A DNA stretch of 63,885 bases, filler included, from Lenisia limosa (taxonomy: Eukaryota > Protista > Breviatea): NCBI GenBank assembly GCA_001655205.1. It is 12 parts of 12 records of this genome, joined end to end, with 100 filler letters (N's around TTAATTAATTAA, not from the genome) between each part and the next. Parts side by side here need not be neighbours in the genome. Positions count along the whole stretch, not along the records: positions 1 to 3,008 come from LPNZ01008567.1; positions 3,109 to 9,355 come from LPNZ01004599.1; positions 9,456 to 12,329 come from LPNZ01008805.1; positions 12,430 to 14,272 come from LPNZ01003863.1; positions 14,373 to 24,281 come from LPNZ01010267.1; positions 24,382 to 30,676 come from LPNZ01007698.1; positions 30,777 to 49,005 come from LPNZ01009047.1; positions 49,106 to 52,169 come from LPNZ01010034.1; 4 more parts are not named here. One strand, written 5' to 3'. The notes beneath the pieces were generated by a model, which ran no database searches, was not told where the DNA came from, and saw nothing but the letters and a program-made list of their open reading frames with translations. The position numbers were made by a program, and so were the translations under genes. Shown piece after piece: positions 18 through 62,593 of this stretch (within the stretch, counting starts at the first letter, position 1; every line of letters begins with the position of its first letter).

Positions 18-2126
18 ATGCATATTCGACACGAGTTTGTCATATTTCCTATTCAACCGGTCGACTTCGGCCTGCTTCTTCTCAATTTCTAAGGTTCGCC
101 GTCTCAACTCGACCTAAAAAAAACCGATAAAATATTGGAGCGAAAGAATGAGAGATTGGGAAATATCTAAAACAAAACAAAAACCCCGTTCGAAACCATA
201 TCTAAGAAGGGGAGAGAGAGAGACAATTGTAAGAATTCATCTTGATTCATTCACTAACTTCCCTTCTTGCTACTATCAACGCCTGATTCATTCGCTTCAT
301 TCGCTATTATCAACGCCCACCTCATAGCGGTCGACAACAGTCTCCTTCTCCTTCAAATCAGCAAGCAATTCTGCGGAATTATCAACGGTAATAGTAGGCT
401 GAAAGTTTTAATTAATTGCATAGAGCCCTAACTCCCCAATCTCAACCTTATTTTGGAGCTTCGTGCAAAAATTTTTTTTGAGGAAATTCATTACAAACTT
501 AGAAATTAAAGATTCTGGAGTAGGGTTTGTTACAATATGTCCGACTTCAAATTTTGATTTTTTTTTTTTTTTTTTTCCCNNNNNNNNNNNNNNNNNNNNN
601 NNNNNNNNNNNNNNNNNNNNNNNNNNNNNNNCTTCCCCCACCTTGTAATCTAGCGCTCTTAGCAGCGTTTTCATCATCAACATTGTAGTGTTGGAGGACC
701 ACGCGAGCGGCGTCATTCTCAACTTTCTTCATTTCGGACTCGGCAATTTCGCGTTCAGCGCGGACCTTTTGCAGTTGTTTTGACGTCACCTGGGGGGAGG
801 GGGGGAAGTAAAATTGGAAAATTTATGACAAAAAAGAAGCCAAAATCAACTCTGTTAGCTAGCACCATATAAGGGCTAAAAAATAACCGGGCCACAATGG
901 ATAATTTATGATACAAAAAATCCAGAATTATTATCTGACCGAAGCCGTCCACACCATCACGACTCTAAGAGATATTGGAGTATAGTATCACAATAAGAAC
1001 ACCCGATTCTACCNNNNNNNNNNNNNNNNNNNNNNNNNNNNNNNNNNNNNNNNNNNNNNNNNNNNNNNNNNNNNNNNNNNNNNNNNNNNNNNNNNNNNNN
1101 NNNNNNNNNNNNNNNNNNNNNNNNNNNNNNNNNNNNNNNNNNNNNNNNNNNNNNNNNNNNNNNGGGTCTTTTCTGAAGGTTTAGATGAATAGAGGTCTTT
1201 TCTGAAGATATAAAGGGTCTGATAAATATTTTGATTAATTTGAGGATTGTACATAATTATTCTATTTACCTCCCCTCTTGTAGCCTATGCAGTTTGATTG
1301 TACCCNNNNNNNNNNNNNNNNNNNNNNNNNNNNNNNNNNNNNNNNNNNNNNNNNNNNNNNNNNNNNNNNNNNNNNNNNNNNNNNNNNNNNNNNNNNNNNN
1401 NNNNNNNNNNNNNNNNNNNNNNNNNNNNNNNNNNNNNNNNNNNNNNNNNNNNNNNNNTGTTTGGTCAATGAGGCCAATTCATTGTTCAGAAGGTGGCACT
1501 CCGATTCAGACGCCTGGCGGGTGTGAGAGGAAAGTGGAAAATGTATGAAAAAGTAAAAGGGAATGAGAGGAAAATGGAAAATTTATGACCGTGAATAAAG
1601 GGGAGTGAATCCCAGTTATGTCTTTTCGGCTATAATATTTAGCAATCTATTTCAGTCTGCTTAAGAGACTAAACACGCATACGTTGAGAGCGTCCTCGGT
1701 TTCTCCTATTGACTTCACCAATACGTTGTACTTATTGAGCGAGGCCTCGGTGTTCTAAAGGCGTTACAGGTCATTATCATTACTAAGCATCATCACCACC
1801 ACTACCATCATAATCATCATCATCATCACCATCATTTTCCCCGTAAAAAGTTATGGTTTTAATGAAAGATGCAACACAACTCCAAGTCCGCCCGGCCCAC
1901 ATTTCGGCTGCTATCGACTTGCTTCTTCAGTGATATCGACTCGTTTTGCGCCTTATTGAGAATCTAAAGCGTTTTAACGAGGCAAATTGAGAATCTAAAG
2001 CGTTTAAAAGAGGCAAATTGAGAATCTAAAGCGTTTAAAAGAGGCAACTTAGAATCTAAAGCGCTTATTGAGAATAGCCAGCGTGTTGTAAAATCATATA
2101 TATAGCAATGAGAAATATCATACTAC

Positions 2127-2160
<34 letters not shown>

Positions 2161-3008
2161 ATTACATACATGATGATATGTAATAATAAATGTATATGTA
2201 TGTATAATATAGTATACTGAAACTCTCCTGATTAGCAATGGTTCGTAAAAAGACTGTCTCCGTAAATCCCCGACAACTATCGATATTTTCCCAAGTTTTT
2301 TCGAACCGAAGCGAAGCTCAATATTGGTCAAAATACCAACCTCAGTGGCTTTCTCGTTTCGATCTTGCTCTTGCTTCACCAACGAGCGATGGCCTCGCTG
2401 GAAATGTGAGTCAGGGGGGGACATAGCTGGAATTTAGCAAATAGCAAAAACCCACCATTAAGGGTGCCGCAGACCCGAAGATTATGACATTATTTTTTAT
2501 CTGATCTGAGCCTAATTTGAGCCTGATCTGTTCTGTGAAGTCTGCAGACCCTTGCCCCCACCATTTCACCACTATATGCATGTAAATTACACCCCCACCC
2601 CCCAACCATTTCGCCCTCGAGAGAAGTCAAATGATCGCGGGTCTTCATGATATCGTCTTGGGTAGCCTAGGCGGAATCAAAAGGGAAAATGTATGAAACA
2701 AAAAAAAAAAAGAAGCCCAAAATCAACTCTGTTCAGCTAACAACAACAAAACAAAAAAAAAGCCCAAGCCGGTTGCTTCTGCAGCACCACACCCCATCAC
2801 TCGGCTAGTGAAAATACAATATGATATGTATGACTCAGAACAAGCCAAAAAACCAAGTAAAAATAGCCCGCAACCTTCAACGCGTTATCACGGCGCTGCA
2901 GGCCGACCAAACTACTCTGCCACTCCTGCATCAACTGGTTCTTAACGAGGACAACAGCGTCCATTTCGCGGCCGGCTTCTTTGACTGTTTCCGCCGCCGC
3001 CGCCGCCT
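18..3008 (-). CDS. CCDC40: Coiled-coil domain-containing protein 40 (axonemal 96-nm ruler), partial, multi-exon
   Basis: GT-AG exons join in frame: ~3008-2872 (AAAETVKEAGREMDAVVLVKNQLMQEWQSSLVGLQRRDNALK, matching the CCDC40 motif EKKQLLQQWKSSLIGMQRRDEAL), 2666-~2607, ~2398-2342, 1963-1901, 1754-1683, 1513-~1458, 789-642, 370-321, 113-18 (LKEKETVVDRYEVELRRRTLEIEKKQAEVDRLNRKYDKL). 5' part is cut by the linker at 3053. Confidence 0.9.
790..875 (-). repeat. Family B repeat (3' part) forming the acceptor of a CCDC40 intron
   Basis: cagagttgattttggc...cataaattttccaattttacttcc...cccccAG directly precedes the exon starting at 789. Confidence 0.8.
2667..2803 (-). repeat. Family B repeat ending at a CCDC40 acceptor
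   Basis: gagtgatgggg...ggtgctgcagaag...gggcttt...cagagttgattttgggc...ccgcctAG. Confidence 0.85.
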
Positions 3009-3378: not shown

Positions 3379-6300
3379 CTTGGATCTTGGAAGAGGGTTT
3401 TGTCGGAATAACCATGAACCTGAGGTGATTAGAGTGGTTTGTTTGCATATGATATGATGATACCATACATATCATATGTAATCAAGATAATACGTGCAGT
3501 GACCGAGATAAGTCTTGACGATTTGCCATGATTTCCCACGGAAAATAGTCAAGACTTCGGTCACTGTTGCTACATCATATGCATATGATATGTAGAAACT
3601 AACAAGAATATGGCCGAAACCATCCCTCCCAAACCTTGAAAAGAGTGGGGTCGTCGGCTTTGGAGGCGTTGGAGGAAACTGTTCCTTTTCGCGTCCTTTC
3701 AGGGTCACTATTTACCTAATAAGGTAAGTATAAGGTAAAGACTTGCCTAATATGGAAAGTAAAGGGGTAATAACTCACATCCTAATTCCATCCAAAATTA
3801 TTCAAACTCCCCACCCCCCACATCCAAATTATATGCCAGCCAACAGAATTGATTATGGGGCTTTTTGTTTCATAAATGTTCCATTATCTCACAATTCCAA
3901 ATCATATCACGATTACAGTGACCAGAATAAGTCTTGACCGATTTGCTCTGTAATTTCCCAATGAATTAGGTTAAGAATAATTGCGGTGATTTCCCAAGGA
4001 AAATCGGTCAAGAAGATTGATTCCGGTCACTGAAACACTTAGTCCCCCCCCCCCCACATCAGGCCGAACCGTAGCTCTTAATTTCTCGAGTTTATCTTCT
4101 GTTGCTTTTCGCTCCTTCAAATACAGCTCTTTCTCCATTTGGAGCTGGAAAACAATGAGTAAACAAAGGAAGACAATCAATGAATTGGCAAAAAGATAAG
4201 ATAAGTCTAAAATGAGATATTATACTATTTGTAGCTCAAAGAAAGATTGTGAAGTATTGAATTTCACCATGCACACTGCCATAAGTCATACACTATCATA
4301 TATGCATATTCCACACCCCCTCCCTCCCACGTTCTCTCGCCTCTCCTCCGCAACTTCCTTTCGATATTCAATACGGTTTTGGTTCACCTATGAGGGTTAG
4401 CGGAGGTATGCAGAAAGCTATGTGCATACATCGATAAAAAAAAATATTATCATTATATCCTCAAAAAATCCCAATAATATTGAGAAAATCACTCGATGTC
4501 AGTTGACATATCGCGCTGCAATAATACACAGAACGGCGATGGAGAATGACAATAGCTTCCTCAATATACACACTATCCCCCCACAATCATTCGCTCCGCC
4601 TTTTCTCTCAGCTCCCTTTCAGCTCGCTCTTGCTCCCTCTTCTCTGACTCAAATTGCTTCTCTGCCTAAAGAGGTAAACACAACCGTATATTTACCATAG
4701 TTTGTGTGAACGACATCTGGCAAGAATAAAGGGTAGCCTGACAGTTACAATTTCCCAAATTGGCATAGTCCCATGAGTCTGTACAAATATCATGCTATTC
4801 TACCTGGCGTTAAACTTCTTTGNNNNNNNNNNNNNNNNNNNNNNNNNNNNNNNNNNNNNNNNNNNNNNNNNNNNNNNNNNNNNNNNNNNNNNNNNNNNNN
4901 NNNNNNNNNNNNNNNNNNNNNNNNNNNNNCTCTTCCTTATCTTCCTCTTCCTCGATCAGACGCTCAACTTCAACGTAGGCCAATTCAAGGCGGGAGGCAA
5001 GGTCAGCTATTTGCTTCTAGAAAAATCAAAAAATATTGTTTGAAAATAACTTATAAAAAAACAAAAAGGGGGGGTTCGATATTTGCGTCTAAAATAAAAA
5101 AAATAATAAGCCAATTCAAGACGAATAACTAGAGAAATACAAAAAAAGGTGTGGGGGGATAAAACAAAAGAGTATTTTGTTCAAATATAGAAACATATTA
5201 TAGAGAGAGAAATGTGCCAAGTGAGTATATATGATATAGAATAATATACCCGATTTTACCCGATTTTTTATAAACTTTTTGAACAGTTGCCCTCTTACAA
5301 CGTGAACATCATTAAAAATCATTGGAAATATGAAATAATAACCAAATGTTATGAGACTTCCGCAAACTTAATTCAAATCTAAGAACATCGCAAAATGACA
5401 ATAGTAGCATGATTTAGTCCCGATTTTTGAAGAAAATTTGTCCGGGCGCCCGGCCCGGAGTGCCAAATTTCCTGGAATTTGTGTGAAATTTTACATTTGG
5501 TTATTATTTCATATTTCCAACAGTTTTTAATGATGTTCACGTTGTATGAGGGCAAACTGTTCAAAAAGTTAATAAAAAAACGGGTAAAATCGGGTTTAGT
5601 GTCGTAAGCATATATGATATGATCTGCATGAAGCAATAAAATAAGAAATGGTGGTTGTCAAGAGGCTGAAAGAAGCTTATAAAATATGAATATTTATCGA
5701 ACAGTTCTCGGAAACATTTGCGTTAATTGGAAAACAAAACATTTAAGCCCTCCCGTTGCCCCAACCTCTATATGCGCCTCGATTTGAGGAATTGTTTCTT
5801 CATGCTTCATAAAACCTGGGAGATGAGCTTATCTTATCAGTCTTTATTAGGCCTCATTTCTGTCCGAAAAAATAATTGTATCGCTCGATATATCCTCGAT
5901 AAATATATACAACAATATTTTACCAGTCTGTTTCAGATGGAGTATAGAATTTTGTCGGACAGATAAACAAATATGAGTTTAATACATCTCAACTCTATCG
6001 CAGGGAAATACTCTTCTTGCCTTAATAGGCCTTCACTTCGGTTCCAAAAAAGACTGGAACAAAATCGATATTTATCGAGAATTTATTGAGACTTATCGAG
6101 GATTCATTGAGCTTTATGGATTTATCACGAATGCTATCACCTAAAATTCGTAACCCCCCGCTGGCGTACAATCATCCCCCACCACTAGGGCTTCCCTACG
6201 GTCCAAAACAATCCGTTTAATTATCGATATTTATCGAGGATTTATCGGGAGATTCGGTCTTTTTTCGGACCATAAGGAAGTCCAACCACTAAGTCCCCCA

Positions 6301-6410: not shown

Positions 6411-9400
6411 TGATAGGGTAAAAAATTGGTCTGAGTAGGGGAGTAAAAGGTTAGCAAATGATCTACTACTCCTGTGCTTAAGAGTAAATGTAGGGCTTCG
6501 TGCAATTAATTATTTGAAGAAATTAATTGACAAAATTAGAAATTAATGTGTCTGAAAAGGATTTTCGTCACGATGTCCCACGTCAAATTTTGCAATTATT
6601 ATTGCAAAACAACAGCTCCCACATAAATCTTTACCTCTTAATACCTCCCCCCCCCCCCNNNNNNNNNNNNNNNNNNNNNNNNNNNNNNNNNNNNNNNNNN
6701 NNNNNNNNNNNNNNNNNNNNNNNNNNNNNNNNNNNNNNNNNNNNNNNNNTTCTCGATAAATCCTCGATATTTCACCGGTCTTTTTGTGACCGAAGTGAAG
6801 CCCTCATCAAAAACAAACACAATCCCCATAACAACAACATTTATCACCCCTCCAAGATCCTCTATTAACCCCCCCCCCCACNNNNNNNNNNNNNNNNNNN
6901 NNNNNNNNNNNNNNNNNNNNNNNNNNNNNNNNNNNNNNNNNNNNNNNNNNNNNNNNNNNNNNNNNNNNNNNNNNNNNNNNNNNNNNNNNNNNNNNNNNNN
7001 NNNNNNNNNNNNNNNNNNNNNNNNNNNNNNTCTCATAATAGGCTTGCTGGGTGGGGGGGGGGAGTTAAATTGGAAAATTTATGAAAAAAAAACGCTTTTT
7101 TTTCAAGGAAGAAAATAAATTAAATGAACAAAATAAAACAATGCAGCAAAATAAAAAAAAAACAAAAAGAGAGAGAGAGGAGATTGGTAAAAAAGCGAAT
7201 GATTTTTATATTGCAAGTATTAAAAAAATATATAACAAAACGATCGATATACTATTGAAATATATCGATGATTTATCGAGAAATTCAGTCTTTTTCGAAC
7301 CATAGTGAAGCATTAAAAAAAATAAAAATAAACAAATGCTTTAAAAACAAATAACCAAGCAATAAACATCAGAAATACTGTCTCCCAAGATGCATCTATA
7401 ATATTATATGACATGTATAAAGAACGCTTGTTTTGAAACAGTAGATATCATAAAGCATAATTCATGCATAGTTTGGAAAAGTATGGTTGAATCGCGACAT
7501 CCTAGCGGCACTGTCGTCTATGGGGGAGGTATGTAGGGTAATGTTATCAAATAACTATCACCACAGTTTGCTCCTAAAAGGGCATCAACAACAAGAACAA
7601 TGTCGATGAATAAGTGCACATGGGCAAGGATGAGATGACTGCCAAGCTTATCCAGGTGATATTTTTTGTTGTCCTCATTTAGTTTTTGGGGGAATTCTGT
7701 GATGTGCCCTGAGTGCTTCATAACAATCTAGGTGATGGTCCGAGCCGGTAGAGGTGAGGTCCGCGGCGATTGCCATCTGGTCGTTCTTTCCCACACCCAC
7801 ATCGATACAGAAGAGATGCAGCTGGCCGGCACCAACACGACCCAAGCCAAGTACAACCTTTATTTCAGAAGACGACACTACCCCATAAAATTCTTACTCT
7901 CCAGAAACAGAAGAAAGCGGTATCATTCCTTCGCATCATACCTCTCCCATAAACACAATGATTTTGTTTGCTATTTATATTTAAGAATCCTGTACATTCC
8001 TCTTTTGGCACGCGACACCCTTACTCGAAGCTTCCGCTAAGGCTACTGAGGTGGGTTTCCCCACAAAAGGAGTATCAGCCTTGGGTATTTTTAGAGCTTC
8101 ACTTTCGGTTCCAAATGGAATTCTCGATAAATCCTCGATACATATCGCTATTTTACACGCGTTTCGGAACTTTTCATGCTTGTGTTACACACTCTTGTCC
8201 CCCCCCCCTCTTTCTTTTTCAAATCCGTCAACAAAAACTAAATACTTCACCCACGGGAAATAAAACACGAATAAAACAGTACATGGGTTGACCCGCGAAA
8301 TCACCCTGAACCCAGGTATCCCGCAGGGAAGCCCGTTATTTCTTTGAGCGATGGGGAATGAAGACCAATGCCTCAAAAACGATCTGCCTCTCAACCAAAG
8401 CGGAAAAGGTAAAATTCCTGGTGGGAGGTTCAAGCCTGGAGGCGACTACGAGAGTGACCAGGCTGCTGCGGATGGCTTGGTACCAGAAGAGAGGTGAAGG
8501 AGAAAGTAGCCGCAATTCTACAAGAAAAGAACTCCATCACCTGCGCGCTTATCAAAAAGTCAAGGAGATGTCACCTTCGAACCTAGCGAGAATTCTACGC
8601 CTCCGTTAGGTACATTCTTCCAATCTGCCCACCCAGTCAAACAGAGCAACTATTTTTTTTTGTGTTTTTGTGTTACTATTTAGCAAAAAAACACTCGGCC
8701 CTGCCATAACCGTTTCGGTTAATTTTTCTGCATTTGCTTTTCTTTAGTTGTGTAAACACCTATTCTCATCATATGTTATTCTCTAGCTCACAATGAAATG
8801 ACCTTCACAAAGCTAAAAGCTTTATTGTTGATTGATGCGTCAAAGCAAAATGTTTGCCCTTGTGTGGTGTTTGCCTTTTTGAAATAATATCGTATCATTT
8901 ACTTAATGCTATGATGTAAGCCCCTTCAAGGTTTGTTCGATTCGGTCTATTTTTATTAAGATGTCCTTCCCTTTTTAGTAATAATCGGCCTTAGCATCTC
9001 AGTGCATCTCTCGCAACACCTACAAGTGGAACGTCGCAATTGCAGCGTAGCTATTGGCAGCAGTGAAAGCTGAGAGGACGCACTCCTCAAAGCGCCATCT
9101 GCATCACCTGGTACACACCGATTTCAGTTTTATTAAAATAGTTGCAAGTCAATTATTAAAAATTGCTGAATCTGTGTGCTAGTTTCAATAGTGACTTTAC
9201 TGAAAAAAAGGACTAGTGATCTTGACTGCATAGTGCAATAATATACAGAGATGAGAAATAATAACAATAAAAATAATAAATATTCATATCATAATAATAT
9301 TAAAACCACGAAAACACTAAATAATTAAAAAAATATAATAATTATTAATAATAACNNNNNNNNNNNNNNNNNNNNNNNNNNNNNNNNNNNNNNNNNNNNT

Positions 9401-10625: not shown

Positions 10626-12199
10626 ATCAAGAGGGGCAGTCGGGTCAGCACCATAGTTCAGAAGGATTTCACTCAGCTTGAGTGTGCTGTATCTCAACAC
10701 GCGAACTGCAATACTGAGAGCTGTGGTGCCCTGAAAAGGTAAGTTATCTCTATGTTGGGCTAGAGACTACAATCAAATATTTCTATTACAAAGAAGTAAG
10801 CAACCGATATTTGAGCTTCATAATCATAAGATAAACTACAATACTGAGAGCTGTGGTGCCCTGAAAAGGTAAGTTATCTCTATGTTGGGCTAGAGACTAC
10901 AATCAAATATTTCTATTACAAAGAAGTAAGCAACCGATATTTGAGCTTCATAATCATAAGATATTTGAGCTTCAAACAGATTTGCTACTCTCAACTGGAA
11001 GCTAACCTTCGGGTAGACCTCCAGATCTCGCACAACCTCTCTCGACGCGGCTATATTGGTATTGCACCCTTCATCACAGAGAACAGAGAGATTGCGACGC
11101 GAGCGCTCATGCGTGGCGTACATGGCGGCTGTCCAGCCAAACTACACCGTGAGTGGCAAGTAGGGCTCCGAAGCAATTCATTGAAAAAAATAATTGCAAA
11201 ATATGAAGTGTGACATATTGTCATGGGAACCTCATTTCAGACACTTTAATTTCAAGTTTTGCCAAATTCTTCAAAAAAATTTATTATCCGTAGCCGTGGT
11301 AGCAAGCCTCGGTAGTGTGGGGCCCGAAGTTCAGAATTGATTGGTGGAAGATATCGGGATATTAACATGAATTTTATACAACAGTCAAAAGCAGGAATTG
11401 GGGGCATGACAGCAAACCTCATCCACGTCATCGAGATCCGAGAAGACGGGAAGAAGAAGAAGGAGACACTCGTCCGAGTTGCGACAACATGCTTTCATCA
11501 GAGGCGTGACACCATGCTAAAAGGTAAGATAAAACAACCTGGGGATGCATAGATGAGTGACCCAAGATGAAAGCATGAAGACAACCTTGTCAGCAAGGGT
11601 GGCGCAACACTTGTTGTTCAGCAAGAGCTTGAGGATGGTGGAGTGGCCTGTTTCACAAGCCATCGACACTGCCGAGCTTCCTTCCTAAATATGGTAACTA
11701 CTAATAGCTGTAGTGTCAACATAAAGTGCTGCTGACTAAAGAAGATAATTCAAACAAAAGCAGCCAGAATGGTCGTTCATGTCATCCCATAATATGTATG
11801 TTATACATGGGGCCTACAGGGTACATGGCAGTGGAGTGGACGTGTTGGGCAATGGATTGAGTTGCCGGCGCCGTATCGACAGTCAGCAGATTGGCCACTG
11901 CCTCGGCATTTCCCTCAGCAACAGCGTACATCAAAGGCGTCCAGCCGTACTGCTGTGTCAGACGGGCTTCCCTATGGTCCCAAAAAAGACGGAATTTTTC
12001 GCTAAATCCTCTATACATATCGATATTTTCCCAGTCTTTTTGGACCGTAGGGAAGCCCTACTTCGGGAATACTTGTCCCATTCCCTCGGCCAACCTGGTC
12101 AAACGTATCCGCACCCGCGTTGTTTCGGATTAAAGTGGCCATGACGGCCATGTCTCCAATATGCAGGGCTGCTGCGACAGGGCTGCTTCCGACCGGAAT
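10626..12199 (-). CDS. Ankyrin-repeat protein, partial
   Basis: Successive exons each encode about one ankyrin repeat: IPVGSSPVAAALHIGD, QYGWTPLMYAVAEGNAEAVANLL, EGSSAVSMACETGHSTILKLLL, HGVTPLMKACCRNSDECLLLLL, FGWTAAMYATH, GTTALSIAVR...LLNYGADP. All are bounded by GT/AG. Confidence 0.85.
11963..12060. mobile_element. MITE family A, intact type-2 copy in an ankyrin-gene intron
   Basis: gggcttccctatggtcccaaaaaagac...gtctttttggaccgtagggaagccc-ta. Confidence 0.88.
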
Positions 12200-12434: not shown

Positions 12435-12530
12435 CGAAAGTTGGAAAATTTATGAAACAAAAAAAAAGGCCCAAATCAAGTTTGTTGGCTAACACACGAG
12501 GGTTGATCACAACAACAACATCGGTTAGAT
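12435..12530 (-). repeat. Family B repeat in a CDC5L intron
   Basis: aaccctcgtgtgttagccaacaaacttgatttgggcc...cataaattttccaa. Confidence 0.8.
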
Positions 12531-12620: not shown

Positions 12621-14272
12621 ATCCTCCTTCCTGTCCTCTGGGATGGCGACTTCGAACTCGTTAGTAGGCTTCGGCAGGCTCTCAAGAAGGTTGGAGACGG
12701 CCGAAGAAACCGGGCGTTTGCGTGAGGCCTTGCGCGCCACAACAGTGTTGGACGTGGGCGTGCTGATGGACTTGACCATGGCGCTGCAGTGTGAAATGGC
12801 AATTCATGTAAGCAACACATACAATACACGAGTTTGGATAACAATCAGGTGAAATACGGTTGAAAATGAAAACAAATTCGAGATGTGGAACCCCGAAATA
12901 ACAATACTCAACAAATAGAGCAAAGACGAGGGGGTTATGTTACCGCAGAAGGAGAATGCAAAAGTAAAAAAGACGAACAAAAAGAGAAAAGAAAGCGACA
13001 ATGACAGCAAACCAAGGAAGGAAGTCTCGAGTAGCCCCGCCTACACTGCCTGTTGGAGGGGCGTCTGGCCTCCAATTGCCGGGGTGCTGCCGCCTCCAAG
13101 GACGGGGGTGGAGCCAACCATGGGCGTTCCGGTCTGGGGGGAGGGGGGATGAGCAAGATTGCCTCGATACAGTACGAGATGGCAATGTATTACACGACGA
13201 AATATAACCCAAAATCAACTCTGCTGACTAAGCAGTTGAAACACATGCGGGTTGAACCCTACCATGGGTGTGCCCGGGATGATCGGGGTGCCTGACATGG
13301 ACATGGGGGTGGCTGCCATAGGAGTGCCTAAGGAATAAGTTCAAAGCCAAAGAACTTCGGAAAAAAGGTTTCAAAACATTTGGTGCGGACTTCTTACGCA
13401 CCCCTCCCCCCACCGCCACGCATGGGAGTCTGACCGTCAATGCCAACCATCGATCCCATTTTCGAGATCTAAAACCAGTCACTTCAAATCATAATAAAAG
13501 AGTCCCTTCCAATCATAATAAAAGAGTTGCGGACGGAAATATTGCTGAGAAAATAAGTTTATGGATAATCCTGTTGTATGATCACTCACAATGCAGGACA
13601 ACACAGATCAATAAACACAACACATGACAATCTTTCGAAAACTATCCACGTTACAGACCTGGTGAAGTTCGGAGTCAGTAACCTGCGGCTCAGGGAGGGA
13701 TAGGTCGGTTCGCTTGCGGATGTTCTCAACGAGAGAACGTCTATGAGGTGAGCGGAGAAAATGGAAATGTACGATACGAAAACCCAGAAGATCAACTCGA
13801 TATAAATACTGATACGACGGTGCGTTTGAAAACAAACAGGGCATAGGACAACATATTTTGGACTATGACAACTCAATCCCCATTCCCCTCCTCACTTGTT
13901 GACTTCATGGATGTATTGAGGAAGGTTCTCGTCCTGCATGACCTTCTGTCTCTTCTTGTCCTCCTTGCGTTGTTTCTGAGTGGTCACAACCACACGTGCT
14001 TATATGGCAAATTTAAGAAATATTAAACTCATCATCCACATCAACAAAACACTCAGAGTTTCATATACAAAGCGAAAATTCCTAAAAATGAGAGAGAAAA
14101 AGCCGAGATAAACGCAGGAAGAAAACTCTACTACCAATTTGAAACCCGATTTATTCTCAGCAATACCCCCCGAACCGCTTCCTCCAGTTCCCTCTTGCGC
14201 GCGCTGTCAAGCCATCTGTTGGCACCTTCGGGCCCTGCATCCACACGTTTGATCTCCTCTTCAGAAGCCGTG
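12621..14272 (-). CDS. CDC5L: CDC5L/Cef1 pre-mRNA splicing factor, internal fragment
   Basis: Exons give IRKRTDLSLPEPQVTDSELHQISKMG (CDC5L [24 protein letters not shown]), a Thr-Pro-rich region, and LLESLPKPTNEFEVAIPE (CDC5L GLPAPKNDFEIVLPE). Truncated by linkers on both sides. Confidence 0.88.
13137..13262 (-). repeat. Family B-derived short CDC5L intron
   Basis: The intron starts gtagggttcaacccgcatgtg..., contains cagcagagttgattttggg, and ends in a C-tract + AG. Confidence 0.65.
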
Positions 14273-24281: not shown

Positions 24282-24395
24282 NNNNNNNNNNNNNNNNNNN
24301 NNNNNNNNNNNNNNNNNNNNNNNNNTTAATTAATTAANNNNNNNNNNNNNNNNNNNNNNNNNNNNNNNNNNNNNNNNNNNNACACCCCACCCCAG

Positions 24396-48446: not shown

Positions 48447-49884
48447 GGAATGATGGAAAATTTATGAGAAAAAAAAAAAGGGGGGGGGGNNNNNNNNNNN
48501 NNNNNNNNNNNNNNNNNNNNNNNNNNNNNNNNNNNNNNNNNNNNNNNNNNNNNNNNNNNNNNNNNNNNNNNNNNNNNNNNNNNNNNNNNNNNNNNNNNNN
48601 NNNNNNNNNNNNNNNNNNNNNNNNNNNNNNNNNNNNNNNNNNNNNNNNNNNNNNNNNNNNNNNNNNNNNNNNNNNNNNNNNNNNNNTGACTGCGTGGATG
48701 ATGACGAGAACCTTAATAGTCAGATTCCTAGCCATGTGATCGGATAATATGACCGACTTTTGAAATGCAACACAAGGGTTCACCCCGAGTGTACCAGAGT
48801 ATCACTGAGACTTGTCGCCAATTGAGAAGTGGATATGAGGTATCATATGATAACACGTGTAAAAAGACCCAAAAAGTGAACGTAGGGAAGCCCTATCTAT
48901 GAACATGTGCGACATTGACGGTTATACTTTGAGCTTTGAGTAGTTTTATGATTTGTCTTTCGTTTGACACGACGGACCCACCTTAGTGACAAGGAATATG
49001 ATGGANNNNNNNNNNNNNNNNNNNNNNNNNNNNNNNNNNNNNNNNNNNNTTAATTAATTAANNNNNNNNNNNNNNNNNNNNNNNNNNNNNNNNNNNNNNN
49101 NNNNNTCGGCCAGATATAACCTTGTTTTTTATTTCTCATTGCTAAATAGTATTATATTATATCATGATCATATCACATTGTAATATACAGAAAGCTGGGT
49201 TCACAGAGTTTTAAAGCAAATGATTGTGTGAATTGATATTATACAATAATTCAGTATCTCTTAAATCGTGATAGTGCTCTATAAATGGGTGGGGAGGGAG
49301 GGGGGGGGGGGGNNNNNNNNNNNNNNNNNNNNNNNNNNNNNNNNNNNNNNNNNNNNNNNNNNNNNNNNNNNNNNNNNNNNNNNNNNNNNNNNNNNNNNNN
49401 NNNTAATCAAAAATATAATATTTTCACGTCTTATTATTCTCAAGGTGTGCGTTCATGATTTTTCTCCCTACCGACGTTCCTATTCTGCGCTGCAAACAGG
49501 CCACAAACAGGGGCATTGAAGTCTTTAGATCCAATTTTATGCCGGTTTGTTCTTGGGGCAAAAGAAGTGTTGCTTATCAATTGTTATTCTTTTTTAGGAA
49601 TTAACACAAGGGCATCTGATTTATTGTTCTATTTAAGTGTAGACATGCATTTTAACTGGGTTGTGTTAAGGGCTTCACTTCGGTTCGAAAAAAGACTGAG
49701 TTTCTCGATAAATCTTCGATAAATATCAGGCTTTATCCTGCCGGAGTGAATTCCTTAATGTGTTTTATTGGGTTTCATATTAGCATTTCACCCTGGTTCA
49801 AAGATGTCTTTGGTGCTTACAGCCACCGTACATGTTATTCTTTCTCTTGCTTACTATTATACTATAATTCAATATCTCTAATTA

Positions 49885-49940
49885 GCGTGATGGTGTGGAC
49901 GGCTTCGGTCAGATACAACCTTGTTTTTTATTTCTCATTT
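49885..49940 (+). repeat. Family D ~55-bp dispersed repeat; copies at ~925-970(-), 15385-15435(-), 20038-20095(-), 23760-23795, 49105-49140, 60560-60615, 60645-60700
   Basis: gcgtgatggtgtggacggcttcggtcagatacaaccttgttttttatttctcat and variants. Confidence 0.8.
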
Positions 49941-51257: not shown

Positions 51258-51876
51258 CTAGTACTTACCCTTGGTGTCGATGACAGCTTGACAACGTCTT
51301 GGCATGAGTCAATAAGGTTTCTTATCTCTTTTGAGGTGATTTCAAACCAAGCAGATTGCAGCTTTTCCATTATATCTGATTCAGAAGTGGGTTTAACAGA
51401 AGAAGCACTGGAGTTTGTCATCAAGGAGTTGCCACGCATGCTCAATGGGGTTAAGGTCAGGACTTTGGGCGGGTCAGTCAAGTAACGTGTAAGGTGCATC
51501 GTTGAAGTAATCAGACAGATATAAAATGAATAAATCGTTTGAAAACAGGTAAAATAAAGCTGTACTCAATTAAAACTAACCTTAGCGATGTGATTTGGGT
51601 CATTGTCCTGTTGAAAGATGGCGTTCCTAAGGTTGAGGTGCAGCATATCTGAAGAAAATGGTCAAGATTATAAAAGTTCAAAACAAACTAACCCCAAATC
51701 TACATACGGTTTAATGTTACATTCCATTAGAAATAAAGAGAAGATTAAATATTCAACAAAAACATTCTGTCATCCATCACCTAACACCCCCTCGAAAGAA
51801 GGCCTAACTTGTCAATGAAGGATATTGCGGATGTAGTATTCTTTGTTCATAATGCCTTTTACTTGGTACAACTTTA
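51258..51876 (-). pseudogene. Tc1/mariner (Tc1-type DDE) transposase C-terminal relic
   Basis: VKGIMNKEYYIRNIL, IFQQDNDPNHIAK, LD*PAQSPDLNPIEHAW (Trp codon mutated to TGA), then after frameshifts EKLQSAWFEITSKEIRNLIDS/MPRRCQAVIDTKGKY*. These are classic Tc1 motifs with stops and frameshifts. Confidence 0.92.
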
Positions 51877-52023
51877 CTGGGATGCGATGCAACAGAAGCG
51901 ACTGCTCTGGGCTTTTTTTTGTTTGATTGTTATCAACCTTCGTGTGTTGTCATCCAACAGTTGATTTTGGACTCTTTTTTTCCCCCATAAATTTTCCAAT
52001 TTTACTCCCCCCTCCCCCCGCAG
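51877..52023 (+). repeat. Family B repeat ending at an acceptor, adjacent to the Tc1 relic
   Basis: gggatgcgatgcaacagaagcgac...cataaattttccaattttactccccctccccccgcAG. Confidence 0.88.
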
Positions 52024-52416: not shown

Positions 52417-54241
52417 CTTGGAGTGGAAAGAGGCACCGGTGACATGGGGGTTCGGGTTATCAACGTTGACACCTCCGGTGGTGATGAAGAGGTCACAAGN
52501 NNNNNNNNNNNNNNNNNNNNNNNNNNNNNNNNNNNNNNNNNNNNNNNNNNNNNNNNNNNNNNNNNNNNNNNNNNNNNNNNNNNNNNNNNNNNNNNNNNNN
52601 NNNNNNNNNNNNNNNNNNNNNNNNNNNNNNNNNNNNNNNNNNNNNNNNNNNCTCTGCTGTTTGTTTTAATTCCCATTTCACCACTTGTTAAATAATCCTA
52701 CCTTGGGAGTAAGGAGGTCCTTGGATTGAACCACGCGGCCTGCACGTTGAGCTTCACCAATACTGGGGTGTAAAATCGGAAATTTTATGAAACATGAAAA
52801 GCCCAAATCAACCCTGTTGGCTGACAACACATGAGGGTTGAGAACAACAAAACACACAAAGCCCAGGCCTGTCGCTTCCGCAGCACCGCATCCCATTATG
52901 AGGGGGGGGGGGGNNNNNNNNNNNNNNNNNNNNNNNNNNNNNNNNNNNNNNNNNNNNNNNNNNNNNNNNNNNNNNNNNNNNNNNNNNNNNNNNNNNNNNN
53001 NNNNNNNNNNNNNNNNNNNNNNNNNNNNNNNNNNNNNNNNNNNNNNNNNNCAACAACTAAAAAAGACAAGCAACAACAAATCCCCTCCCGTACCGCTTGA
53101 CATCGGGAGTGGGGTTGGCGCGGTTGGGCAGTTCGTTGCGGCGGAAGCCTCCTGATACGGACTCCTGTGGGGTGAGTGGTGGGGTCATAGAACATCAGTT
53201 ACACCAGCCGCGAAAAGTCCTGATACGATTGACTAAAGATAAATCTATTATCACAGTCCACTCTACCACTTTGAAAATGAGTGACACGATTGACTTTAAA
53301 GATAAAAATATCTGAGGCAGGGCTTTTATGCCACTTTGAAATATTCTTATATTTTCAAGATTTATTTCATATCTACTTCTTGCTCTCAAAAAGAAAAGGA
53401 GTTACCTCAACCCCGGGCCATACCTTCTGGTGGTCACGGCAGTCGGCAGTCATGTTCACCTCTCCCTTGATGTCGCGACCGGAGGTTCCAATTCCGCCTC
53501 TGGGAGGGGGGGGGNNNNNNNNNNNNNNNNNNNNNNNNNNNNNNNNNNNNNNNNNNNNNNNNNNNNNNNNNNNNNNNNNNNNNNNNNNNNNNNNNNNNNN
53601 NNNNNNNNNNNNNNNNNNNNNNNNNNNNNNNNNNNNNNNNNNNNNNNNNNNNNNNNNNNNNNNNNNNNNNNGATGGTGGAGAGGCAGAGGAGGACCTGGG
53701 GCATGTTGTTGCCGTCCCACAAATCGACGGTCATGAAGTTGTACTAGTAATGTGAGGGAAGGGGTAGGAATGAAGTTGGTCCGAGAAAAAAAGATATAAA
53801 AAAAAACCAATCAGATTATCATCAAAAGCAATAGTTCACTGGCGGATATTTTTACTTGCCCAATGATCACGATGCTACCCTAGATGACATTAGCTCCTCC
53901 TACATGGTCGGGAACACCGAGGGACCTGGCTCCGGCAATGAAGGAAGCAATACGCTCCATGCACTAAGGAAAGTGAAGGAAACTCGAGGCGGAAGAGCAA
54001 ACCATGAAGGGCATCTTTCCCTTGGCGATCTTGCTAACTGTTCCTGGCTTGAGTTTGTTGAGAAGCTCACAGAGCTTCATTCCTGAAAAAAAAAAAGATT
54101 AGACCGATTTCTCTCAAACAAAGCCCAACCATCCTTGATATCTTCTTGCATGTGGCTCTCGGTGAGCCAGTTGTACTTTTCGCCAACAACTCCGCCGAAC
54201 CAAGCGGCAACCTCCTTTGAGACAGTTGAATTCCAAGACAT
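52417..54241 (-). CDS. Calponin-homology domain protein (transgelin/calponin-like CH), 3' truncated
   Basis: MSWNSTVSKEVAAWF...DIKDG|MKLCELLNKLKPGTVSKIAKGKMPFM|CMERIASFIAGARSLGVPDH|YNFMTVDLWDGNNMPQVLLCL, a typical CH domain across in-phase exons, followed by further exons. Confidence 0.9.
52763..52900 (-). repeat. Family B repeat ending at an acceptor of the CH-domain gene
   Basis: ataatgggatgcggtgctgcggaagcgacaggcctgggc...ttttacaccccAG. Confidence 0.9.
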
Positions 54242-55045: not shown

Positions 55046-55419
55046 GGTGGGGCGGACTCACATGTTATATTACATCCACAATCCCCCTTGGATTGTATTC
55101 TTGTATNNNNNNNNNNNNNNNNNNNNNNNNNNNNNNNNNNNNNNNNNNNNTTAATTAATTAANNNNNNNNNNNNNNNNNNNNNNNNNNNNNNNNNNNNNN
55201 NNNNNNCCGCATCCCATCATCAATGCTAATCACAAACTAAACAAAAAAACAACTGTAAAATGTGTAGCTGTTAACTTTGGGTCAGCACCCCATTTCAGAC
55301 TCCTATAATTAAAAGTGTTACCCCTAATGTTTAATGTTGGTTATAGGTATTCCTAAAATTATGGCGGATTCGGCTGCAACCTAAGTGAAGTGAACTGAAG
55401 AACTAGTACCCCCCACAGG

Positions 55420-58400
55420 AGGTAAGTTGATGTTGAGGGGAGACGTTCCGATAGTGGATACCGCGGCTGCGACAACCTCCAGTTTTAGGGCTATTTTGTG
55501 AGGGGGTGGAATGGGCAAATTCATGAATCAAAAATGCCCATACGGGAGATTGGCACAAAGTGCGGAAGTGTATGGTAGAAAGGGAAGTAGGGTTGTTGGT
55601 GAGTTAAAGATCTTGGGAGGATAATAAAAGATCCTTAGAGATAATAAAAGAAGGAGTATTCAGTTTTAGAGCTCTGTATAGCCGTAAGGGGTCAGTACTA
55701 GGGCGAATTGTGGCAAGAAGATTATATTTAGTAACCGCAAAGTCAAACCAGTTTTGAGGGTGCGATCCACGCCCTTCGCAAGAGGCACCAAATGAACAAG
55801 CTGAAATGTCATATTATGGGGAATATGAAGTGAAATCATATCACTGCTTGGGAAATTACACGTGTGAAAATTACCCCAAAAAGGTACAAACATACAATAT
55901 AATTCCCAGGAACGCCCACCTCAATCATGGCACTGTAAACGTACTCATTTCCCTTCATTGTTTTCCTCATGCGGCATTGCGCTGAATGTGTTAAGGGAAG
56001 GGCTTCACGTCGGTTCAAAAAAGACTGAATTTCTCGATAAATCCTCGAAAACTATCGAGAAGTGAAGCCCTAGATATGTTGGAGAAATGACAAATCAGCA
56101 GCAGACGTCCACGCTCTCACACTTATAAGAAAAGATACAGTTGCCTTCACTATGAATAGAAAACCATAGACTCCTTTTCCCTTCCTCAACAAAATTATCC
56201 TGTGTCACCCCCCCCCCCCATACAAACAGCTTCCTGAATCGCGATTTTCCAGGTGTACAAGTTCAGGCAAGACGTCTCATCAAACACCAGGGACCAGTTT
56301 TCGCCATCAGGGAGCCCACACGGGGCAGAACTCACGTCGTTGACAGAAATCTTGGTGACTGGATGGAGGTGATTTCAATATTGATATGGCAGAAATGACA
56401 GAAATGTGAAAAATAATAAGATGAAAATCTCTTCACTGGATATAGGTGATTTCAATGACAATGTGACAGAAATGAATCATTCTGAATCCATCCACGCTTT
56501 AAAAACAAAACAAAAGACTACAATGCAACTTATTAGGACTGTTTTGGAACCAAAAAGCGAAATTACTTATCCAGTCAATATCGATTTGCCCCCCCCCCCA
56601 ACCTGAGGNNNNNNNNNNNNNNNNNNNNNNNNNNNNNNNNNNNNNNNNNNNNNNNNNNNNNNNNNNNNNNNNNNNNNNNNNNNNNNNNNNNNNNNNNNNN
56701 NNNNNNAAATTGTGAGAGGAGATTGATTATAAATCAATAAAAACAGTCTTTGTTTCTCTCTTTTGTGAAGAGACAACAGATAATATGACAAGTGTTTGTT
56801 TCATAAAGATTATGATTTACAGGATCTTACAGTCATATATGGGGGTATCTCAACCAGAAACTTTCAACCAAGAGTCAGAACACCCTTCCCTCAGATTATA
56901 ACAGAATACCACAGACACACACCATGTAAAAAATGTTATCCTCCCATCCCCACGTTAGTTGAATATCGCTGTTATACCCCCGTTAGAATATCGCTGTTAA
57001 TAACGCCGCGCCCCCACGTTAGAATATCGTTGTTAATAACGCCTTTCTCGACCGAGACCTTCACAGAAAGAGACACCGGATCCGGCTCGGAGGGAATGCA
57101 GGATCCTGGGGGGATAATAAAAGATCCTGGGGGGATACTGAATGATATGGTTCAATCAGGGAAATTTGTAAACCCCACATCGACTTGGGATTCTTGTGAA
57201 AACGTTGGAATTCCCATATTTTACATGATAATCACATGGTATTTGATTGAATATATGAAGTTATTTGTGGGATTCCCAAATAATAATATTGGAATCCCTA
57301 GTCAGCTCGCCTTAGTGTCTGTTTGAGGAGAATTTCCTTAAAATCACCATAAGCAACTGCACGGTCCCCTCCCATCCCACCACAAACACCCTTGTTACAG
57401 GGTTGCTGAGTGCTTGGCTTGTTTTGGTGGCATTTGCTGTCTTCAACTTCCTCCATTCCACTGTTCACACATTTCACCTGGGAAGAAATGAAAAATGGGA
57501 ATGCTAAATAGAGAACTGAAGAATTAACCCTTATTTGAAGACTACTTCAACAGGACCCTGACCCCCATCCACCCCCACACTATTCTGGTTTGAAGCTCAC
57601 CGTTTGGTTATGTGATACGGATTTTGAAAAGTGGTGGTAAATAATACTGAAAATACTGGGAAAATTGATGCCCTGACCCCATCCCTACAGTACCCCCACA
57701 CGCAGTATTCTGGTTTGAAGCCCCTCCTCACTCTTTTCCAACCTAAAACAGCCCCTAATAACCAAACATTCTCATCATCTCCGGCAAACAATTGCTCAAA
57801 CACCCCCAAATCACCATAACTAATTCTTTCCCAGCATGAAACAACATCTAATCACCAATACCCCCCTTTTCACCTCCCGCGCCCACATAACCCTTCGCAT
57901 CAAATAATCCCAACCCCGGACCGTTCGGGTTTGGAGGCCGTCGCCACACGGCTCGCTACAATCCGACCATGATGAGGGTCTCCACTGGTAGTATTCTATG
58001 GGGTTATATTGGTACTCTGGGGGGGGGATTTATGAAACAATAAAAAACCCAAAACAACGCTGATGGCTGACAACATACGAGGGTTGAGAACAACAAAACC
58101 AACAAAGCCCAGGCCAGTCACTTCTGCAGCACCGCATACCATCACTCCAGCGTACGGTGATATCATGAGTTGTCCCCATTCTCAATCAACATCTAATTCA
58201 ACCCATTTTCCATTGCCACCACTCCATGATCAATAGACTACTCACTCAACCAAATAAACAGTCCGTTGATATTAACAATCCATAAATAATAATCCAAATC
58301 NNNNNNNNNNNNNNNNNNNNNNNNNNNNNNNNNNNNNNNNNNNNNNNNNNNNNNNNNNNNNNNNNNNNNNNNNNNNNNNNNNNNNNNNNNNNNNNNNNNN

Positions 58401-59512: not shown

Positions 59513-59890
59513 CTGTTACTATCCAATTGTGCTCGGCTGGAGGAAGACGTTATTGGAAGGGCATCATTATATGCATGTATAGGTAGGAATAAATCTGGAA
59601 AAATTAAGAATAAAAAACACCACGAAAAACCCACTGTTAGTGTATTGTATTACATATTATATATATCATATGGCAATGATTAAAAAAAAAACTGACAAAA
59701 ATAAGATGACATCCATTTTCTTCATCCCCCTTATTAGGTTTCTTCATCCCCCATACTACAAGGCTTCTTTTGGCAGTCTCTGAGAGTCGANNNNNNNNNN
59801 NNNNNNNNNNNNNNNNNNNNNNNNNNNNNNNNNNTTAATTAATTAANNNNNNNNNNNNNNNNNNNNNNNNNNNNNNNNNNNNNNNNNNNN

Positions 59891-62593
59891 TGTGGACGTG
59901 AGAGGGTAATGGAGATTCCAGCACCTTGTGGACGTCAGGGGGTAATGGAGGGTATAGTCCCGGGGATGGTAGGAATTTTGATGGGGCATGGCCAAAAGGC
60001 AAAGAGTATGTGTTATTTTACCCTTTTGACCGGGAGGCAAGGGCGATATAATATAACTAAGGCTTCCCTACGACCCGAAATAGTCTGTTTAAATATCGAT
60101 ATTTATCAAGGATTTATCGAGATATTCGGTCTTTTTTAGGACCACAGGGAAGCCCTACATATGACAATAGAATGAGGTTGTGGAGGGTAATTTTATTTAG
60201 TCAACAGTGTTTGTTTCATTAAGTCGCAATTTTTACGCCTGGGCCTTGTTTTGTTGTTATCAACTATCGTGTGTTGTCAGCCAACGGAGCTGATTTTGGG
60301 CTTTTGTATTTCATAAATTTTCCAATTTATTCCCCTTGCAGGATGGTGATGTAGATTGGAACGAAACCCCTGATGAAGACGACCCGGGACTTCCACATGT
60401 AGACACCAGGGATGTTGACGACCACATGTACGTTGAAATCGTGGTTGCCAATGACTACGAGCGTTACAAGGGTGAGAAGGACGTTATGTGGTTCTATTTA
60501 TGAACAGAGCACATAAATTAAAACATTGGGATTATACACTATAATCTGAAGCCTCTTAAAAGCGTGATGTTGTGGACAGCTTCGACCAGATACAACTTTG
60601 TGTTCTTTCTCATCTCTCTCCTATAATCCAATATCTCTTGTAAGCATGATGGTGTGGATGGCTTCGACCAGATACAACCTTATTTTATTTGTCATCTCTA
60701 TCATAATAAATACTGTAATTAAAATAGCATACTAAGTTGGACTTACCTATGGTCAAATATACCGTATTGTATATGATATTAGCTGTTCTTTAGAAAACAT
60801 GTAGTATGTAGTATACATACATGTATGTATCATAGGAGAAGTAATTAAAATTTACTTTAAACAATGAAAAGGACTAATCCTTTCAGCCCGAGGCTCCGGG
60901 ACCGAAAGAGGTACCATTGAGGTGGTCAACTTCTCCAACCTCATCTACAACAATCTACCCTTCGCCTTCCACCCCAGGTTCCATATTGTTCTTGCAAAGC
61001 AAGTCACGTGGACTTGTAAGCTGATTGGTTGATAGAATATTCAGTGACCGATAAGTCTTGACCAATTTTCCTTGGGAAATCACATAGCAAATCGATCAAG
61101 ACTTATCCCGGTCACAATACTTGATGTAATGGTCAAATGATTTGTCAATTTTGTAGTATTGTAAGATGGTTGATTAGTAGAGCTTCACTTTGGTTCGAAA
61201 AATATCGGTAAAATATCGATAGTTTTCGAAGATTTATCGAGAAATTCAGTCTTTTTTTGAACCGAAGTGGGAATTGGTCTTCAAAATGATGTATTGTCTG
61301 TATCATACATGTTCTCAGATAATTGCTTTTATTTTATTAATAATACGACCAGTTTGGTACATTTCCCTGCATCTTGGTATTTTCGGGGTTTACATTTCGT
61401 TGATAATAGTCCTATGTATATGATATGGTATGTTATTCCATCCCTGGATTGTATTTTTGTCCTCTGGCATTTACCCTCCGTCCAGCTGGAGATCCCTATA
61501 GACTTGACAACGGTCCTGCCTCAGGTGATATTCTCTTCGCTGTTTGGGGGGAGATCTAAAACAGACCATGGGAGTATAACTACCACCACTACCACCACCA
61601 CCACCACAGTCATCATCACCCACTACCACCACCACCACCACCACCACCACAGTCATCATCATCATCATCCTCCTCCTCTTTTTTATTTTAAACAAGAACA
61701 ACATCATCAACATCATCATTATCATCATCCAACCATCCAGCTGGCAGAATGGCAGGAACACGCAGGTCTCACAAATAACGATCACGTGCACCTCCTTTCG
61801 GGCTACAACTTTGACGGTTCCATTGTTGGACTTGCCCCTCTGGGTTATATGTGTCATTCCGCTCTCAAGTGGGGGGACGTACAAATACTATCTACATTGT
61901 AACATTACACCTTTTTTTCACAACATTATCAAAATGGCGTTAAATAGCATTAATAGCATTAATAGCATTAATAGCGTTAATAGCATTCGTAACATCAACA
62001 ACATCTAGAAAGTTACCAACATTAATTCCGTCCAGGGTGGGAATCACACAGTGCCGGTCGCCATACAGTAACAATTGGTGCGGCACCACAATGGCACATG
62101 AGGTGGGTATTACATGGGGTGTTGAGATATGGTAATACTTGTATATGATATGGGTTATTTTGCGGGAGGTGGTTTTTTACTCATTAATTTTTGACATCAT
62201 TGTTAATCCACTTTAGATAGGTCATCAACTCGGGGCCAACCATGACGGCACAAGCGCTCAGACCGCTGTATGTGGGGGAGAGGAATGCAAGGCAACTGCT
62301 TTAATTATAGCCGTGCAATTAATTTTTTGAGGATATTTATTGACAAAATTAGAAATTAAAGTGTTTGTAAAAGGGTTCTAGTTGTAAGATGGCCGACTTC
62401 AAATTTTGAAATTAATTTTCCAATTAATTCAACTGAGCTCTAATCACTTTCCCCTACTATCATGTATTGTTTGTATCTTACCCGAGTATTATAATTATTA
62501 TTACCACCAATATTATGCACTCAGACTGGAGAAGCGAGTTGTCCTTCTTCTGGACTGGTTATGGCAGCATATGCGTCGTCAAGTTCAAGACAG
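59891..62593 (+). CDS. ADAM/reprolysin (M12B) zinc metalloprotease, partial
   Basis: Exons 60342-60471 (MYVEIVVANDY), 60887-61015, 61486-~61545, 61741-61868 (NDHVHLLSGYNFDGSIVGLAPLGYMC), 62036-62102 + 62217-62267 (TMAHE|IGHQLGANHD = HExxHxxGxxHD), 62525-62593 (Met-turn CxxxxxVMA). Confidence 0.92.
60058..60156. mobile_element. MITE family A in an ADAM intron; further copies at ~56000-56072 and 61180-61270
   Basis: ggcttccctacgaccc...ggaccacagggaagccc-ta. Confidence 0.85.
60237..60341 (+). repeat. Family B repeat ending at an ADAM acceptor
   Basis: gcctgggcc...gtcagccaacggagctgattttgggc...cataaattttccaatttattccccttgcAG. Confidence 0.88.
61580..61735 (+). repeat. (CAC/CAT)n intronic microsatellite; similar tract at 1790-1835
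   Basis: Trinucleotide tract inside an ADAM intron; it explains the spurious poly-Thr/His ORF. Confidence 0.9.

Follow-up and report, generated by a model that had tools for sequence, protein, structure and literature searches.

Family B, a dispersed repeat of Lenisia limosa found mainly in sense orientation at 3' splice regions

Sequence window and gene models

The window, by which we mean the whole analysed stretch of 63,885 nt (filler included), joins 12 parts of 12 records of the genome assembly of the breviate Lenisia limosa (GCA_001655205.1) and carries in its introns a dispersed repeat of about 140 bp, here called family B, which lies mostly in sense and close upstream of 3' splice sites. 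The GC content is 37% and 5,362 positions are N. An artificial TTAATTAATTAA linker lies inside the gaps at 11 places within 3053-62695, and the continuity of genes across the gaps is not guaranteed.

Exon chains were built by hand and gave 55 GT-AG introns with unbroken frames and nine extra acceptors, that is 64 acceptors; the B locations were already known when the exon boundaries were picked, and the RNA check covers one B acceptor only. Two public runs from one study were used, poly(A) RNA (X1) and DNA (X2), the latter being the likely source of the assembly and so not independent of it. Pfam matches support the coding strand assigned to the ankyrin, MutS, TSP1, LMBR1, TMEM17/216 and RPSA genes, and X1 RNA supports that of the calponin-like gene. 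X1 exon cover is nil over 24382-30676 and speaks neither for nor against the acceptors there. Single exons with G-rich donors underlie the hosts of four B copies (45589, 51878, 60237 and 62742). The names CCDC40, CDC5L, FAM210, calponin and ADAM denote presumed likenesses. Introns are dense, nine of them interrupting some 310 MSH2 codons. Among all annotated introns, 31 of 55 donors have at least six G in nucleotides 3-14, GTGGGG being the commonest, and acceptors are often C-runs.

Copy number and anatomy of family B

A profile hidden Markov model (HMM) of family B gave 24 matches in the window at E<1, 21 of them at E<0.01. The reversed window gave none; in 10 local shuffles nothing passed E<0.01, while 0-2 matches passed E<1. 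A preliminary description made from the sequence alone had reported a dispersed repeat of about 140 bp in some 20 copies, and this was borne out, with no copy in the 11 control sequences. About six further scraps, tail-only or head-only, were recognised by motif or by eye (Table 1). Pairwise identity among the eight long copies is 61-85% (median 77%). In X2, 3,192 contigs align to the stretch with the B copy at 52771-52896, nearly all onto that copy, and the summed depth there, which is no copy number, is about 3x10^5 as against about 21 over unique DNA. Because so many contigs and such a depth fall on one copy, family B is genome-wide and likely numbers thousands of copies.

The heads of family B are ragged and its tails fixed. 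Model starts of the 21 copies range from 2 to 84, while 20 of them end at 115-130 of the 132 model positions and the remaining one is cut by a gap. Such a constant 3' end with variable 5' truncation is a trait of short interspersed nuclear elements (SINEs) and other retroposons without long terminal repeats (non-LTR). The tail is T/C-rich, not A-rich, and the idea that B is an A-tailed SINE read in antisense was rejected, since the truncation would then fall at its 3' end. Genome-wide, the head is defined by 124 contigs that share ...TACGCTGGAGTG preceded by a mixed T/C flank; the tail with its C-run is common to 117 contigs, and the T/C-rich flank at 28866 recurs in 112. Within the window, the flanks upstream of B heads are 64% pyrimidine versus 53% (p=0.0004). 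The trinucleotide TAC was seen by eye at the left junction of three of 16 truncated copies, two of them behind old tails.

Copies of B stack head-to-tail, and at 790-928, 24848-25045, 51878 and 60237 the better-conserved piece is the one proximal to the acceptor. At contig joints one B follows another, B heads sit within the T-rich body of a second copy, B follows the tail of a second family, C, and B bodies carry C tails. From the order in the stacks and these joints, new copies therefore land in the interval that runs from the tail end across the C-run to immediately after the AG.

Family B contributes U-rich sequence upstream of the AG. In five copies (13180, 21404, 28846, 33248 and 34625) the shared tail is separated from the AG by a unique stretch of 19-46 nt, and the AG there is thus likely host sequence, so that the earlier term "acceptor-donating" holds in part. 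At 28846 a full B is followed by 33 in-frame nucleotides ending in a weak AAG acceptor, 37 nt past the tail; to judge by the sequence, this single case may represent an insertion at an old junction that intronised 11 codons.

Orientation and position

Twenty copies are sense to the host gene and one is antisense (p=2e-5), as the preliminary description had proposed, although its list of copies lacked the antisense one at 3834-3887. None of the 21 lies outside genes (p~0.01), though 20% of called bases are extragenic. Four sense copies that enter N gaps, two of these via a C-run, were left out of the position count. Among the 16 gap-free sense copies, 12 end 6-46 nt (median 19) upstream of a frame-supported AG. 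The other four are not acceptor-adjacent: those at 24848 and 24896 are upstream members of a stack, that at 30478 has an AG followed by a C element, and that at 62742 has no nearby exon. The earlier statement that the tail is at or near the acceptor therefore holds for most copies but not for these. One B acceptor was confirmed by RNA, an X1 contig splicing 53094 to 52762 with GT-AG ends, so that the AG at 52764-52763, directly after the B tail, is used. In total B stands beside 12 of the 64 annotated acceptors, or about one in five, and B-side acceptors are richer in C (p=0.027).

The family A miniature inverted-repeat transposable elements (MITEs; ~98 nt, 24-nt terminal inverted repeat (TIR), 34 copies in the window) provide a comparison. 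Their strand ratio is 15:11, eight of the 34 lie outside genes, and only one of 11 is acceptor-adjacent, versus 12 of 16 for B (p=0.001). In annotated introns seven of 11 start 9-71 nt past the donor; the MITEs do occur in both orientations, as had been noted, but they are not simply mid-intron.

The strand bias had been taken as peculiar to B, which proved incorrect, since family C is sense in five of five cases and family F in seven of seven where the host is known. Family C, of about 125 nt, likewise has a tail of TTTTAC plus a C-run, is of high copy number (X2 summed depth 22,060 in its bin), has exchanged tails with B, and acts as another element of B's type. Family F (~55 nt) has a T-rich 3' end and lies mostly away from acceptors; the word GTGATGG is common to it and the B head.

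Element class

Family B is not an Introner, because it is never the whole intron, the donors of its introns show no relation to one another, donor function is impossible for the GT at 58155, and junction repeats are absent. The GTACGC starts at 28846 (+) and 58155 (-) and the CCCAG end at 58155 are present as reported. The suggestion that the unit therefore reads as GT...AG was not confirmed, since use of the 58155 GT as a donor meets an in-frame stop three codons upstream, the AAG of 28846 is 37 nt off and its head read as exon runs into stops, and C, not G, is the commonest base ahead of TACGC when the loose ends of 124 contigs are combined into a consensus (agreement 0.48). That B mostly does not make up the whole intron was upheld, with none of the eight sense B introns having both ends annotated spanned by it. 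Their donors are ordinary, G-rich and unrelated to each other, and their 5' parts are no more similar than those of controls (15.3 vs 15.0), so that shared 5' parts were dismissed. Later growth on the 5' side of an intron-generating element, one of the two origins put forward at the outset, does not account for these introns because the element's own GT would remain at the exon boundary. The other, a mobile element inserting at 3' splice regions, fits the position, the orientation and the unrelated donors.

Direct repeats of the Introner type at the junctions measured 0-3 nt against a mean of 1.6, which is no signal. Target-site duplications (TSDs), a check proposed earlier, were sought in 13 copies, and swapping the flanks did not significantly lower the match (own 4.9 nt, swapped 4.8 nt; p=0.32), though the copies are old and a TSD of 2-3 nt could escape. 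B had no minus-strand self match indicative of a TIR, whereas the 24-nt TIR of family A was recovered as positive control. The fold z-scores of four copies (+0.22 to +0.98) did not go beyond shuffles, and B as a folded element was discarded. Helitrons are marked by a 5' TC and a 3' CTRR with a subterminal hairpin; no ends or hairpin of this type were found on B from inspection of the ends by eye and from the folds. No Rfam match to B was obtained at E<=1, and the proposal that B is a snoRNA or belongs to another Rfam family was rejected. As to a SINE head derived from tRNA, 5S or 7SL RNA, only loose words resembling the A/B-box consensus of Pol III promoters were seen by eye, with T-runs inside. 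In its sense bias, its confinement to genes and its lack of TSD and TIR, B resembles RNA-type Introners (Micromonas, ascomycetes).

Other candidate explanations were tried and rejected. Pairing of G-runs and C-runs as decayed TIRs found no correlation (rho 0.07, 51 introns), and a branch-point role was not supported, YTRAY occurring in 20 of 54 acceptors versus 19.1 when shuffled. The proposal that a cryptic reverse-strand donor accounts for the missing antisense copies is unsupported: GTAAA is present in only five of the 21 tails, and the antisense copy itself has a donor-like word at its side.

Proposed origin and alternatives

With its anatomy, strand and position bias, head truncation, head-to-tail stacks and lack of TSD, TIR or fold signal directly observed, we tentatively favour, as a plausible but far from assured reading of these analyses, that family B is a non-autonomous, endonuclease-free retroposon-like unit primed at C/pyrimidine tracts and then filtered by selection. 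The template would be a C/U-tailed B RNA, the end of which would be copied by reverse transcription onto a broken G-rich DNA end in a pyrimidine tract with no endonuclease, in analogy with Athena and Coprina elements. The target would be the pyrimidine tract of an intron that probably existed already, and a partner element would supply the reverse transcriptase. Selection would retain mainly the sense, acceptor-side copies. Every new copy would re-form a T-rich tract ahead of the C-run, so that the site would remain a target and introns would lengthen by stacking at the 3' side. Read along its own strand, the antisense copy at 3834-3887 leads through 26 nt and a D MITE to the donor G-run, which on this strand is a C-run; this mirror image of the sense layout fits strand-blind priming at C-tracts.

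Several points weigh against tract-primed retroposition. Among runs of at least five in the 55 introns there are 17 donor G-runs versus 13 acceptor C-runs, yet only one of 21 copies is antisense, and the 20:1 ratio of B exceeds the 41:12 strand asymmetry of pyrimidine tracts (p=0.03). Eighty nucleotides are visible at 24 of the 31 G-rich donors, and no antisense B occurs within that distance. Because donors tolerate MITE A at a distance of 9-26 nt, this reading has to postulate strong selection directed at antisense B. The absence of extragenic copies is also difficult, no reverse transcriptase was found in 47 open reading frames (ORFs) scanned (picked from 264 long ORFs and the annotated exons), and the poly(A) run X1 held no B transcript except short flank-bearing contigs. 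Loss of heads could be later erosion, with tails retained by selection.

The main rival, which we regard as possible though doubtful, is insertion coupled to splicing or the transcript. Here the 3' splice region of an unspliced pre-mRNA, or of the cDNA made from it, would receive B, either because a GT...AG ancestor reverse-spliced into it or because reverse transcriptase switched template at the C-tract. Recombination across the exon downstream would then return the sequence to the genome, and B would merge with the host intron as in Micromonas. The sense bias, the lack of extragenic copies and the lack of TSDs agree with it, as does the complete-looking 112-nt intron ending in TAG that directly precedes GTACGC at 28846; AG-ended tracts also precede 30027, 30478 and 2797, and one contig reads C-tail-TAAG-B. 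In the relevant parts of the Micromonas report, Introner elements (IEs) are sense, occur in transcribed regions only, and leave remnants or merged copies in older introns (PMC3879977). An old AG is nevertheless not systematically left of the head: acceptor-like AGs upstream of it are not enriched (2/18 vs a null of 4%, p=0.15). The C that genome-wide precedes TACGC by plurality, the lack of any B copy forming a whole intron in an exon and the unrelated sequences between tail and AG also speak against this route, which leaves the single antisense copy without explanation. We give a similarly limited chance to the broader proposal that B and C belong to a class of mobile units which the machinery of splicing or of pre-mRNA itself carries to 3' splice sites, where they would colonise the acceptors of existing introns genome-wide, renew the pyrimidine tract and stack.

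DNA-templated spread appears unlikely, whether C/G homopolymers prime ectopic repair or gene conversion from one intron 3' end to another or a rolling-circle, Helitron-like unit is at work, with a founder amplified by drift. It would account for the missing TSDs and TIRs, the tandem stacks, the B/C chimeric tails and the near-tandem local duplications at or beside several splice sites, and repeat-masked B introns are slightly shorter (88, 46, 200, 158, 162 and 189 versus a median of 200; p=0.07), as replacement predicts; but 124 contigs, whose flanks are mixed, show a sharp head boundary, no sequence is common to the 5' parts of the introns that bear B, and neither Helitron-type ends nor a hairpin were seen. 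Quite improbable is an ordinary transposon inserting at random of which only sense, acceptor-side copies survive: the T-rich tracts of B could disturb splicing elsewhere, yet copies lying antisense in mid-intron or between genes ought to do no harm and to be frequent, and MITE A shows a 15:11 ratio with 8/34 extragenic where B shows 20:1 and 0/21. Least probable, and to our minds very much so, is that a classical Introner made these introns and their 5' side grew afterwards. The two GTACGC starts, the CCCAG end and the intron-dense genes suggest it, but the donors are unlike the B head and unlike one another, the 58155 GT is unusable and direct repeats at the junctions are missing.

Other features of the window

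The copies of families B, C and F and the remaining features are collected in Table 1. Near-tandem duplications, 20-120 nt long, lie across or next to splice sites; they may be real or artefacts of the assembly. Exon sizes are mostly 40-130 nt. RPSA shows 62-71% identity to its 120 best relatives, and in a tree of 24 of those 120 proteins the host forms a long branch that the tree does not place. The MSH2 exons used as queries matched no relative, and exact-pattern scans had zero matches in metagenome contigs and zero in viral contigs.

Table 1. Repeat copies and other features, in window coordinates
Feature	Position	Strand	Context
B	809-881 (region 790-928)	-	Ends 19 nt before acceptor G790, CCDC40-like gene
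Older B scrap	896-928	-	Upstream of B 809-881; family F copy 932-961 above
Near full-length B	2667-2812	-	Intron 2874-2667, tail 11 nt from AG; TAG-ended pyrimidine tract immediately upstream of head
B, 3' part	3834-3887	+	Sole antisense copy
B tail-only scrap	7047-7093	-	At acceptor 7047
B, 5'-truncated	12437-12518	-	CDC5L-like intron, donor 12620, acceptor within N gap
B, 5'-truncated	13134-13264	-	Directly past donor 13262; 46 unique nt before AG 13134
B	21404-21548	+	FAM210-like intron 21249-21548; HMM end 45 nt from AG
Three stacked 5'-truncated B pieces	24848-25045	+	Last best conserved; C-run, then gap
Family C tail (25838-25883), then B-like tail	25838-25942	+	Acceptor 25942
B, 5'-truncated	27521-27627	+	14 nt from AG 27627
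Family C tail	28099-28139	+	Acceptor 28139
Full B from 28846	28734-29018	+	Preceded by 112-nt intron-like stretch (GT...pyrimidine tract-TAG)
B, 5'-truncated	30027-30117	+	Directly after C-run-CAG; C-run, then gap
B with C-run-AG (G30595)	30478-30676	+	Family C head (30598-30676) adjoins at once
Diverged B, E=0.004	33229-33340	-	MSH2 intron 33510-33229, 19 nt from AG
B with C-like tail	34591-34734	-	MSH2 intron 35107-34591, 34 nt from AG
Family C 3' part, sense	44734-44796	+	C-run and CA repeat downstream
B fragment	45589-45612	+	Cut by N gap
B tail-only scrap	48443-48489	-	At acceptor 48443
Near full B	51878-52023	+	After old B-like tail; 19 nt from AG 52023
Best B copy	52763-52896	-	Calponin-like intron 53093-52763; acceptor RNA-confirmed
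B head	55207-55226	-	Cut by N gap
Full B, GTACGC to CCCAG	58017-58155	-	3' end of longer intron; next exon encodes TSP1 domain
B, 5'-truncated	60237-60341	+	Old tail upstream; AG 60341 is 13 nt off; ADAM-like gene
B, gap-cut	62742-62813	+	Nearest AG 62831 without exon evidence
Full family C element	63279-63404	+	C-run-CAG end, then open exon-like stretch
Family F	932-961, 15385-15436, 20040-20092, 41941-41991	-	
Family F	23760-23791, 49106-49136, 49884-49935, 60560-60612, 60642-60694	+	
Near-tandem duplications	1964-2045, ~10710-10960, 26400-26445, 27906-27980, 32424-32500, 57105-57140, 62580-62640		
Possible 12-nt micro-exon	28722-28733		
SNORD82-like match, weaker	31615-31680		
C/D snoRNA snoR44/J54-like match	37554-37628	-	RPSA intron; E=5e-5, slightly under gathering threshold
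Broken transposase remnant, presumably Tc1/mariner-like from its SPDLNPIE-type motif	~51260-51660	-	Antisense in long intron; possibly with own short introns

Known systems and significance

The closest precedent is IE-A of Micromonas, for which the sections concerned report 6,112 copies as whole introns and 463 remnants, and propose a route at the pre-mRNA level (PMC3879977). Like B, these elements are sense only, lie in transcribed regions and inside older introns, and may be nested or merged; they differ in that most are whole introns and that those sections give no 3'-end position, whereas B is never whole and follows an acceptor-side rule. Introners and introner-like elements (ILEs) in general are likewise repeats tied to splice boundaries, and ascomycete families also lack TSD and TIR, but B neither spans the intron nor makes the donor. 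Fungal ILEs, as far as the pertinent text describes them, have a stable predicted secondary structure (PMC3609843), unlike B. Stwintrons, according to the part of the account that concerns them, share with B a repeated unit within a splice element of another intron and the lack of TSD, but there the inner unit is itself an entire intron that is spliced and has TIRs of 45-55 nt, and B has no TIR and no demonstrated working donor (PMC8469720).

Among retroposons, four of 14 de novo Alus in NF1 hit the AG or the polypyrimidine tract in the relevant passage (PMC3219598), and the canine Merle SINE is described as inserted at a polypyrimidine tract (PMC7349775, in part). These too are short non-autonomous retroposons led to the pyrimidine tract of a 3' splice site, but Alus carry a poly(A) tail and TSDs of 7-20 bp, and the insertions in question disrupted splicing. 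B has a pyrimidine tail, lies in sense, lacks TSDs, and is both tolerated at the 3' splice site and concentrated there, and its priming would be the mirror image of that of Alu. The endonuclease-less Penelope-like elements (PLEs) Athena and Coprina attach to exposed G-rich ends via a C-rich stretch, and head-to-tail copies occur among non-autonomous PLEs; as portrayed in the portions concerned, however, they are telomeric, encode reverse transcriptase and carry hammerhead motifs, whereas B is internal, non-coding and has no Rfam match (PMC8557442).

The passages concerned of a review on transposon-derived introns contain nothing like an acceptor-confined family (PMC11282704), and no description of one like B was found in the open-licence literature, which is weak evidence of novelty. 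Judged from its sequence, B appears to be a variant of intron-linked non-autonomous elements in a previously undescribed form. Introner surveys, in the parts that set out their filters, demand similarity at both intron ends and drop secondary insertions (PMC9860276; PMC12130899; bioRxiv 10.1101/2020.10.14.339549). A B-type family would therefore likely be missed by them, and families of this kind may be under-counted.

A high-copy family thus lives at 3' splice regions and is carried by 12 of the 64 annotated acceptors of the window. Transposon insertion at such regions normally breaks splicing. If the pattern is genome-wide, introns would grow and splice signals turn over by a path separate from intron gain. 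The junctions of B, in their thousands, could pit the long-proposed but unproven RNA-level route (reverse splicing or pre-mRNA cDNA) against tract-primed retroposition. Should the splicing-coupled explanation be true, B and C would be intron-end parasites of a sort that Introner surveys discard by design.

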